Shown here: positions 1 through 58,324 of the stretch, in pieces
Layout: the number at the start of each line of letters is the position of its first letter
Numbering within the stretch: position 1 is the first letter of the stretch
Assembly: GCA_024276825.1 (NCBI GenBank)
Contig: JAJRWI010000003.1
Coordinates: 1 to 64,000, forward strand
Length of the DNA: 64,000 bases
Origin: an archaeon
Lineage (GTDB): Archaea > Asgardarchaeota > Thorarchaeia > Thorarchaeales > Thorarchaeaceae
Direction: 5' to 3'
Notes under the pieces: model-generated
The model's input: the letters and a program-made list of their open reading frames with translations, nothing else
Database searches by the model: none
Told to the model about the DNA's origin: nothing
Position numbers and translations under genes: made by a program

Positions 1-324
1 GACGAGCTGAGAGCTGGTGCATGGCCATCGTAAATTCGTGCCGTGAGGTATCAGCTTAAGTGCTGCAACGAATGAGATCCCTGCCACCTAGTTGCCAGCC
101 GGGGGCTTCGGCCCTGTCGGGGCACACTAGGGGGACCGCCGGCGAGAAGTCGGAGGAAGGTGGGGGCCACGGTAGGTCAGTATGCCGCGATATGGGCGGG
201 GCCACACGCGTGCTACAATGGCCGGGACAATGCGCTACAACACCGAGAGGTGAAGTCAATCGCGAAACCCGGTCGTAGTTGGGATCGCGGGTTGGAACCC
301 ACCCGCGTGAACCTGGAATCCCTA

Positions 325-354
325 TCAACATCAGACTCCCTGATGTTGGGGAAA
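325..354 (+). other. 16S rRNA mini-intron 1 (30 nt, BHB)
   Basis: Interrupts GGAATCCCTA|GTA; central helix TCCC/GGGA with 3-nt bulges TAT and AAG; 9-bp hairpin CAACATCAG-ACTCC-CTGATGTTG. Confidence 0.9.
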
Positions 355-497
355 GTATCCGCGTGTCACTATCGCGCGGAGAATCTGTCCCTGCTTCTTG
401 CACACACCGCCCGTCGCTCCATGCGAGCTGGTCTGGGGTGAGGCGTCGTCCATTGGGCGATGACGAATCTTGGGCCGGCAAGTAGGGAGAAGTCGTA

Positions 498-527
498 ATC
501 GTGTCAGACTCCCTGACACGACGGAAA
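498..527 (+). other. 16S rRNA mini-intron 2 (30 nt, relaxed BHB)
   Basis: Interrupts AAGTCGTA|ACAAGG; hairpin TCGTGTCAG-ACTCC-CTGACACGA; central helix GTCG/CGGA (3 of 4 pairs); boundary can slide 1 nt. Confidence 0.88.
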
Positions 528-603
528 ACAAGGTATCCGTAGCGGAAGCTGCGGATGGATCACCTCCTACGTTGCCTAAAAGGCAAGAAGTGTAGACTGA
601 CGG

Positions 604-660
604 GGTGGGTGTAGATAAGGGATTTACCCTCGTGCCCTGCTGAGCCACCCTATTATTTTT
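604..660 (+). terminator. Hairpin plus T-tract after 16S
   Basis: GGGTGG...CCACCC stem followed by TATTATTTTT; no tRNA-Ala or 23S follows. Confidence 0.5.
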
Positions 661-20128: not shown

Positions 20129-20267
20129 GCGGAGGTTGCCGAGCCTGGTCAATAGCGTGTCTAACGCTGGCTACAGGCGCAGGACTTTGTTCCACAGGCT
20201 TCTGTGGGGCGTCCAAAGGATCCTGTCTCGTAGGAGTTCGCGAGTTCAAATCTCGCCCTCCGCACCA
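20129..20267 (+). tRNA. tRNA-Leu(TAG) with two BHB introns (20153-20174 in the D-loop; 20188-20216 at 34/35)
   Basis: Removing the introns gives GCGGAGG...CAGGA-CT-TAG-GA-TCCTG, a long variable arm, TTCAAAT and CCA. Confidence 0.92.
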
Positions 20268-20710: not shown

Positions 20711-20840
20711 GCCGGGGTGTCCGAGCGGCTAAGGAGGCGGTCTCGAAACCCTCTAAGGCGACATAACCGCTACCTTCGGGTGCATGGGTTCGAAAGATTC
20801 CAAGTATTTTGGGATGCCGAGAGTCCCATCCCCGGCGCCA
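20711..20840 (+). tRNA. tRNA-Ser(CGA) with two introns (20748-20764 at 37/38; 20795-20823 at 59/60)
   Basis: GCCGGGG/CCCCGGC acceptor, GCGGT/ACCGC stem, long variable arm, GCCA end. Confidence 0.92.
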
Positions 20841-56997: not shown

Positions 56998-57134
56998 GGG
57001 GACGTGGCCTAGTTGGCATGGCGACGGGCTCCAGATCTTATGATTCACGGGGTCATATCAGTAGAGACTCGTCGATCGTGGGTTCGAGACCCACTCACAC
57101 TCCGTGATGGGTGAAAATCCCACCGTCCCCACCA
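56998..57134 (+). tRNA. tRNA-Trp(CCA) with two introns (57035-57066 at 37/38; 57089-57117 at 59/60)
   Basis: GGGGACG/CGTCCCC acceptor, ACGGG-CT-CCA-GA-CTCGT, GTGGG-TTCGAGT-CCCAC after intron removal, ACCA end. Confidence 0.92.
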
Positions 57135-57228
57135 TTGCCTGCTACTATTTCTAGAGATGTTGCCTAATTGCTTATATCACAAGTCCTTTTTTACTTCATG
57201 CCATCTATTATTTGGGAGATTTTCTTCA

Positions 57229-58080: not shown

Positions 58081-58145
58081 CAGATAATAATCTTCAGTGC
58101 TCTAGAGTAATCTTTAATAACAGATTCCGCCGACTTCACTCTTGA

Positions 58146-58260
58146 TGCCGGCCATAGGTGGCGGGGCTCACCCGATCTCGTTCCGATCTCGGAAGTTAAG
58201 CCCGCTACCGTTGTGGGAGATCTGCGGTGCGCGAGCCCGTGAGAGGCCCACAAGCTGGCA
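58146..58260 (+). rRNA. rrf: 5S rRNA (unlinked, no intron)
   Basis: GGCCATAG, CACCCGATCTCGTTCCGATCTCGGAAGTTAAG; terminal helix TGCCGGC/GCTGGCA. Confidence 0.95.
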
Positions 58261-58324
58261 CATTCTTGTTCTTGGTGCGAGAATTGTGATTGTATAAACA
58301 GCTAAGCTTAAAGGAGAAAGCACA

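Follow-up and report, generated by a model that had tools for sequence, protein, structure and literature searches.

Short introns (less than 50 nt) which form a hairpin with a BHB motif were described in the 16S rRNA genes of Thermoproteales, Desulfurococcales and Aigarchaeota (Jay & Inskeep 2015, PMC4496867). The 16S loci listed in that work extend from 374 to 1391, and none of them is located at 1499. For Asgard archaea, an (αβ)2 EndA with an L1 loop was reported, which has been linked to the cleavage of relaxed motifs (PMC5829648). Among the Asgard archaea, the classes highlighted as having intron-rich tRNAs are Jordiarchaeia and Atabeyarchaeia, not Thorarchaeia, and the two studies in question contain no mention of introns in rRNA, 16S or 23S (PMC11291895; bioRxiv 10.64898/2026.10.13.758758).

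This paper will describe a 30-nt insert in the 16S rRNA gene of a member of the Thorarchaeaceae (class Thorarchaeia). The stretch of DNA analysed, referred to as the window, comprises 64,000 nt of one contig of the genome. On comparative evidence, the insert is almost certainly a real mini-intron of the BHB type which is spliced. It is very probably an ORF-less splicing-endonuclease intron with a relaxed HBh'/BHL motif, cut by EndA and ligated by RtcB.

Position and structure of the insert

The window begins with the 3' third of the 16S rRNA gene (Table 1). Alignment to the Rfam archaeal SSU model left 30 nt unaligned, corresponding to window 498-527, between ...GAAGUCGUA and ACAAGGUAUCC..., with GUCGUA as the upstream and ACAAGG as the downstream flank. 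When aligned to E. coli rrsH, the insert follows directly after position 1499 (A1499/A1500), seven bases 3' of A1492. Relatives without the insert read GUCGUAACAAGG. On both alignments, the 30 nt are an intervening sequence with exact boundaries. Because of the flanking A residues, the boundary can be slid by one base in either direction, and the BHB geometry selects 497/498 and 527/528. An earlier sequence-only reading of the window had noticed the 30-nt interruption, placed it at E. coli 1499/1500 inside the target of primer 1492R and expected this primer to fail. The two alignments and the recurrence of the insert in relatives confirmed the interruption and its site, and a primer-target search confirmed the rest: the target AAGTCGTAACAAGGTARCC has no match in the window with up to three mismatches, since it is split by the insert into 8 nt on one side and 11 nt on the other.

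Table 1. Features of the window; all are on the forward strand, and a hyphen between bases marks a predicted junction
Feature	Position	Strand	Description
3' third of the 16S rRNA gene	1-568	+	Rfam RF01959, model positions 974-1478, 366 bits
Predicted twin 30-nt mini-intron	325-354	+	E. coli 1346/1347, CCCUA-GUAUCC; layout as for 498-527
Exon strand of the central BHB helix, H	492-495	+	GUCG, E. coli 1494-1497
5' bulge	496-498	+	UA-A; predicted 5' splice site between 497 and 498
Predicted 30-nt mini-intron	498-527	+	1 nt, 9-nt stem strand, 5-nt loop, 9-nt stem strand, 4-nt H', 2 nt
Inner helix h'	499-521	+	499-507 with 513-521, 9 bp, all Watson-Crick; loop ACUCC at 508-512
Intron strand H'	522-525	+	CGGA, pairing with exon GUCG
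3' bulge or loop	526-528	+	AA-A; predicted 3' splice site between 527 and 528
29-nt intron in tRNA-Leu(UAG)	20188-20216	+	anticodon 34/35; GGAC/GUCC, 9-bp stem, AA end

In the mature rRNA, the exon strand of the central helix forms the 3' side of the base of helix 44. With the intron strand it forms the pairs G495-C522, C494-G523 and U493.G524 and the apposition G492.A525. The sequence-only reading had described an imperfect BHB with one G.A in the central helix and a weak exon-exon helix. The imperfection was confirmed, with one G.U in addition, while an exon-exon helix of any kind was not found in the sequences flanking the insert. The 3' cut site is therefore predicted to be located in a loop and not in a 3-nt bulge. 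The insert thus differs from the canonical hBHBh' form, consisting of a 4-bp central helix, two 3-nt bulges and two outer helices, of which it has the 3-nt 5' bulge and a 9-bp inner helix. It corresponds instead to the relaxed HBh'/BHL motif, in which both junctions are located 2 nt 3' of the central helix strands. This geometry predicts exactly the boundaries given by the rRNA consensus, both for this insert and at 13 of the 15 rRNA sites of the family.

Folded alone, the insert forms the 9-bp hairpin with -13.8 kcal/mol (z = -3.3), a value equalled by one of 200 shuffles. The central helix, with two G-C pairs, one G.U and one G.A, is one of the weakest in the family. In a thermodynamic fold of 163 nt, extending from helix 44 to helix 45 and including the intron, its pair probability was at most 0.05; the predicted partner of the intron's 3' strand was instead the 5' strand of helix 44, where GUCG occurs as well. 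Since the central helix is disfavoured in this fold, free energy alone gives no support for the motif in this copy, and the enzyme and the intron hairpin would have to provide for its recognition.

For the twin insert at 325-354, the central helix UCCC/GGGA is perfect and the motif is present in the minimum-free-energy fold (z = -3.5). The two introns have a 13-nt apex in common (UCAGACUCCCUGA) and differ in five of the nine stem pairs, every one of which is compensated. Outside these two introns, the 11-mer CAGACUCCCUG has an exact match in the genome only at C42:64939, where a hairpin is not present and the match is probably due to chance. A scan of the whole genome for the structural layout, with G-U pairs allowed, resulted in 849 matches compared to 877 in reversed-sequence controls, so that the layout has no discriminating power in such a scan. 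With the covariance model R1, good scores were obtained in this genome only for the two 16S introns.

The genome was also searched with both spliced junctions. The only strong match was one of 17 nt, identical to the spliced 1499 junction (GGAGAAGUCGUAACAAG), at C18:26189-26205 on the minus strand, inside an ORF for a 256-aa membrane protein beside ABC-transporter genes. A role of this sequence as a guide against intron-less 16S was considered and rejected as a coincidence, with a chance probability estimated at roughly 0.01; the match is probably due to chance because a TnpB or RNA-guide context was not found in its neighbourhood. The genome contains one clear TnpB-like gene, on C24, and a fragment of such a gene on C81, and neither is flanked by a match to rRNA. 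Spare copies of the 16S tail were not found in this genome. In several relatives, the final ~42 nt of 16S, which begin at the 1499/1500 junction and run to the 3' end, occur again on other contigs (for example three times on G011:C9, three times on G016:C54 and twice on G004:C14), and the start point of these copies coincides with the intron site.

Conservation at site 1499 and the host gene

In a comparison of Asgard 16S rRNA genes, a 30-nt insert at 1499 was identified in 12 of about 25 Thorarchaeaceae genomes, namely the one studied here and 11 others. The site is empty in at least 12 genomes of the family, including one of the same genus, and also in three aligned genomes from other Asgard families. 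The 11 orthologous copies were aligned without selection. In the proposed structure of 13 pairs, 93.7% of the cells of this alignment pair, whereas a shift of the partners by 1-3 columns lowers this share to 24-55%. Compensatory changes are present in six of the nine stem pairs, and the covariation score of 0.568 (0.245 for shuffles) was reached by none of 500 shuffles. The intron 4-mer at this site is CGAC, CGAU, CGGC, CGGA or CGAA; the two inner pairs of the central helix are invariant G-C pairs, and four genomes have G.A at the outermost position. In addition, an insert of 29-33 nt at 1499 was found in 21 JGI metagenome contigs, all of them with Thorarchaeia-type flanks, using a scan pattern open to flanks from bacteria and other archaea as well. 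In 18 of these 21 contigs, the central helix is fully paired without a change of register, and 13 of the 18 also have a stem of 8-9 pairs. Because a different, covarying 30-nt sequence is present at the site in 11 other genomes, with 29-33 nt in the 21 metagenome contigs, the insert is judged not to be an assembly artefact.

A single 16S gene was detected in the genome (2.9 Mb, 82 contigs, 98.3% complete, Thorarchaeota). It is split over two contig ends, with its 5' part at G000:C42:1-849 on the minus strand, and ~145 nt of its middle (about E. coli 885-1040), a stretch which includes site 908, are missing from the assembly. The exons are intact, with scores of 366 and 733 bits. The 5' leader and the 3' trailer (window 569-650 and G000:C42:850-960, minus strand) co-fold into a long processing stem of about -83 kcal/mol, as expected for the excision of archaeal pre-rRNA; a clean 3-4-3 BHB was not resolved in the co-fold of this stem. 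The 16S, 23S and 5S genes (5S at window 58144-58263) are unlinked in this genome. At window 416, the equivalent of E. coli A1408, a G is present (CCCGUCGCUCC), as in the other aligned Asgard sequences, while the Rfam archaeal consensus has an A.

With a 16S gene split over two contigs and lacking its middle, in a draft genome of 82 contigs, the interrupted gene might be a dead or mis-assembled copy, a working 16S without introns being located in the unassembled part. This is extremely unlikely, however, since only the one 16S, with its exons intact, was found in a genome of this completeness, the flanks form the processing stem, and the same interrupted site recurs with conserved exons in the 11 other genomes and the 21 metagenome contigs.

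The module at other rRNA sites and in other genes

In the family, inserts of ~30 nt are present in 16S at about 700, 908, 1339, 1346, 1363, 1375, 1386, 1499, 1517 and 1530 (E. coli numbering, within about 2), and likewise at several positions of 23S. In nearly every case, the intron 4-mer at positions -6 to -3 is complementary to the exon 4-mer at -6 to -3 of its own site, and it changes from site to site (CCUG/CAGG, UCCC/GGGA, UCAC/GUGA, GGAG/CUCC, GAUG/CAUC, GUUC/GAAC and so on). For 15 rRNA sites, with one representative per site and the two misfit sites retained, the exon-intron pairing of the 4-mers was 50 of 60, a value not attained in any of 100,000 permutations, the mean of which was 27. 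The rows of the cross-site alignment A2 and of the covariance model were chosen for their fit to the layout, and the pairing of 95.7% in that alignment is therefore partly circular; the 11-copy alignment at 1499 and the 15-site permutation are free of this row-selection bias, and both the unselected orthologues and the permutation support the helices by covariation. A purine-purine apposition at the outermost position of the central helix recurs at seven sites, so that the weak helix of the insert at 1499 is not exceptional.

An insert tailored to its own exon is what would be required of a splicing substrate, while a retained hairpin or a random insertion would have no such need. This bears on the alternative that the 30 nt form a small expansion segment which persists in the mature rRNA, with the stable hairpin inserts existing in some rRNAs as a possible precedent. 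Retained expansion segments and intervening sequences of the bacterial type are characterized by a location in a variable, surface-exposed region and by having no need to pair with the flanking exon. The insert described here, in contrast, is placed in a universally conserved, functional stretch of the decoding centre, adjoining A1492/A1493 and U1498, is missing from about half of the close relatives, and has an end which covaries with the upstream exon at 1499 and at 14 other sites, a feature that a retained hairpin would not need. The module is moreover present in relatives in the helix-45 tetraloop, in EF-1α and in tRNAs. Retention of the insert is thus most unlikely.

Several further inserts were observed in rRNA. 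In the helix 45 tetraloop of one relative (L054, genome G021), at about E. coli 1517, the site of the conserved dimethyl-adenosines, a 91-nt insert can be divided into three 30-nt modules in tandem; all three have an AUUUC loop, and the 4-mer of each is complementary to exon UAGC or AGCG. In the genome studied here, the 23S gene contains a 144-nt insert (G000:C42:62763-62906) between CCCAGGGGUA and ACAGAG, which places it in the peptidyl-transferase centre at about E. coli A2450/A2451. The same end rule applies to it, with exon GGGG and intron CCCC followed by AC, and inserts of 186-791 nt are present at the same place in four relatives. Site 908 bears an intron in 10 relatives, either a hairpin of 30-47 nt or an intron of 740-900 nt (relatives L057, L060 and L062 among them). 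The two long introns that were tested both encode LAGLIDADG_3 proteins, and the mini forms at this site could be remnants of homing introns. Long LAGLIDADG introns were not seen at site 1499 and are present in relatives only at 908. For the 30-nt insert itself, a homing-endonuclease intron of the LAGLIDADG type was rejected because 30 nt leave no room for an ORF, and a group I or II intron was ruled out by the size and by the lack of an Rfam match.

The covariance model built from rRNA copies was also used to search 38 genomes of the family. In three relatives (L118, G016:C45; L119, G024:C197; L120, G036:C15), the EF-1α gene was found to be interrupted after ...GHKDF by a 30-nt module with UCAU / GUGA and an AUUUC loop, and the reading frame is free of stops only once exactly the predicted 30 nt are removed. 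Copies in tRNA genes were also identified in this search, as was a twelfth 16S copy at site 1499. In the genome studied here, a copy in EF-1α was not found with model R1. Its tRNA-Leu gene (window 20129-20267) contains the 29-nt intron listed in Table 1, identical in layout to the rRNA modules, which was the third-best match of the rRNA-only model in the window (16 bits, E 0.08) and has to be removed, since it splits the anticodon. Among the tRNA introns, only this one and the T-loop intron of tRNA-Trp at 57088-57116 were parsed by hand, and the latter does not fit the same register. The EF-1α and tRNA cases speak for excision as well as religation of the module in Thorarchaeaceae.

The tRNA genes for Leu (20129-20267), Ser (20711-20840) and Trp (about 56999-57135) were missed by ARAGORN and by the Rfam tRNA model and were read by eye, with two introns in each of them. 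Automatic tRNA counts for this genome are consequently far too low.

On the gene level, the genome codes for the enzymes expected for the splicing of relaxed motifs, namely EndA and the RtcB ligase. Two EndA paralogues were identified, located at G000:C4:38774-39286 and C47:2510-2965, each containing both Pfam domains. The α-like protein of 192 aa is closest to the catalytic α subunit from Aeropyrum pernix (3P1Z_B, E 3.5e-47), and shares 69-73% identity with proteins from named Thorarchaeota MAGs. The active-site residues Tyr, His and Lys are conserved in it, and it aligns without gaps through the Crenarchaea-specific loop, with K47 as the equivalent of the K44 lysine. The second protein of 205 aa is more divergent, and its assignment as β rests on weak matches to the β subunits NEQ261 and PAE0789 and on the replacement of the catalytic His by Ser. 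Together, the two proteins are predicted to form an (αβ)2 EndA with an L1 loop, which is the broad-specificity type. An EndA of broad specificity had been deduced from the imperfect motif in the sequence-only reading, and the protein sequences are in support of it.

With cleavage being assigned to EndA, the question of ligation arises, since the hairpin might also be cut by EndA or by another RNase without the exons being joined, as for bacterial intervening sequences. In such a fragmented 16S, a separate tail of 42 nt would carry helix 45 and the anti-Shine-Dalgarno sequence. A 3' cut site in a loop and not in a canonical bulge would agree with fragmentation. However, RtcB is present, the identical module in EF-1α of relatives and in the tRNA-Leu anticodon requires ligation to give a product, and archaeal rRNA introns have been described as being excised, followed by ligation (PMC4496867). 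Unjoined exons are thus very unlikely.

For the preferred reading, removal by EndA and RtcB, we infer the following course of events in vivo, from cleavage through ligation to circularisation. The six bases at the 3' end of the intron would provide, in the pre-16S rRNA, the 4-nt strand CGGA and a 2-nt spacer. CGGA would pair with exon GUCG, located 2 nt upstream of the 5' junction, and this pairing, together with the 9-bp hairpin, would position each junction two bases 3' of a strand of the central helix. The (αβ)2 EndA with its L1/Crenarchaea-specific loop would then cut at both junctions, after which RtcB would join the exons and thereby restore ...GUCGUA-ACAAGG... at the decoding centre. 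The 30-nt intron would be released, probably as a circle.

A more far-reaching interpretation is that the 30-nt hairpins represent one proliferating family of ORF-less introns in Thorarchaeia, each copy with a 4-nt exon address, which has spread over 16S (at least 10 sites, eight of them in the last 200 nt), 23S, tRNA and the EF-1α mRNA, and which at 1499/1500 has a role as a late checkpoint. Helix 44 has two GUCG strands at its base, one of which would be tied up by the copy at this site until the intron is removed, so that splicing would be a late checkpoint in the formation of the decoding centre. Reverse splicing could account for the spread, as could nuclease-assisted homing against alleles without the intron. 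Taken as a whole, including both the spread and the checkpoint, this interpretation is speculative and considered unlikely.

Consequences and comparison with known introns

Primer 1492R is the reverse primer most commonly used for full-length 16S, and it would be unable to prime on the genomic DNA of about half of the sampled Thorarchaeaceae. Other mini-introns of the family disrupt the 1391/1406 primer region and the 3' end. With these primer sites interrupted, Thorarchaeaceae are expected to be under-represented in primer-based surveys and 16S databases, and the databases may contain 16S sequences of this family with unrecognised inserts. The richness in tRNA introns recently reported for Asgard archaea is extended to rRNA, and in relatives to mRNA. 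An intron in the decoding centre would make the function of the ribosome dependent on the tRNA-splicing machinery, and the uniform module offers a useful system for studying how introns of the EndA type are acquired and maintained in the prokaryotes most closely related to eukaryotes.

Group I introns are known from the same conserved 3' region of SSU rRNA in eukaryotes, for example at S1506, S1512 and S1516. These are self-splicing ribozymes of several hundred nt, a class to which a hairpin of 30 nt cannot belong. An intron of the EndA type in a transcript other than tRNA is present in the cbf5 pre-mRNA of Crenarchaeota (PMC2738675); the EF-1α copies of the relatives are analogous to it, while the insert at 1499 differs from it in gene, size and lineage. 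The non-canonical tRNA introns of Asgard archaea and Thermoproteales (PMC11291895; bioRxiv 10.64898/2026.10.13.758758; Marck & Grosjean 2003) have the same motif and the same presumed enzymes; here, however, the host gene is an rRNA gene.

The closest similarity exists to the 16S introns of Thermoproteales, Desulfurococcales and Aigarchaeota (PMC4496867). Like these, the insert at 1499 is an ORF-less hairpin with a BHB-type motif in a highly conserved stretch of 16S, disrupts a universal primer site, has a patchy distribution among relatives and is presumably removed by EndA and RtcB. The relatives in the Thorarchaeaceae follow, at locus 908, the pattern of the described introns, with either mini-hairpins or long introns encoding LAGLIDADG proteins. 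In contrast to the described introns, the insert belongs to Thorarchaeia, thus to the Asgard archaea, and is located at 1499/1500, a site not among the 13-14 loci listed in that work, as had been supposed in the sequence-only reading; in addition, its motif is relaxed and lacks an exon-exon helix. The layout in the Thorarchaeaceae is also strikingly uniform (1+9+5+9+4+2 = 30 nt), at 10 or more 16S sites and several 23S sites. A report of rRNA mini-introns in Thorarchaeia was not found in full-text searches of papers available without subscription. Within the openly searchable literature, the insert thus represents a known class of introns which is new at the functionally striking site 1499/1500 and new in the lineage Thorarchaeia.
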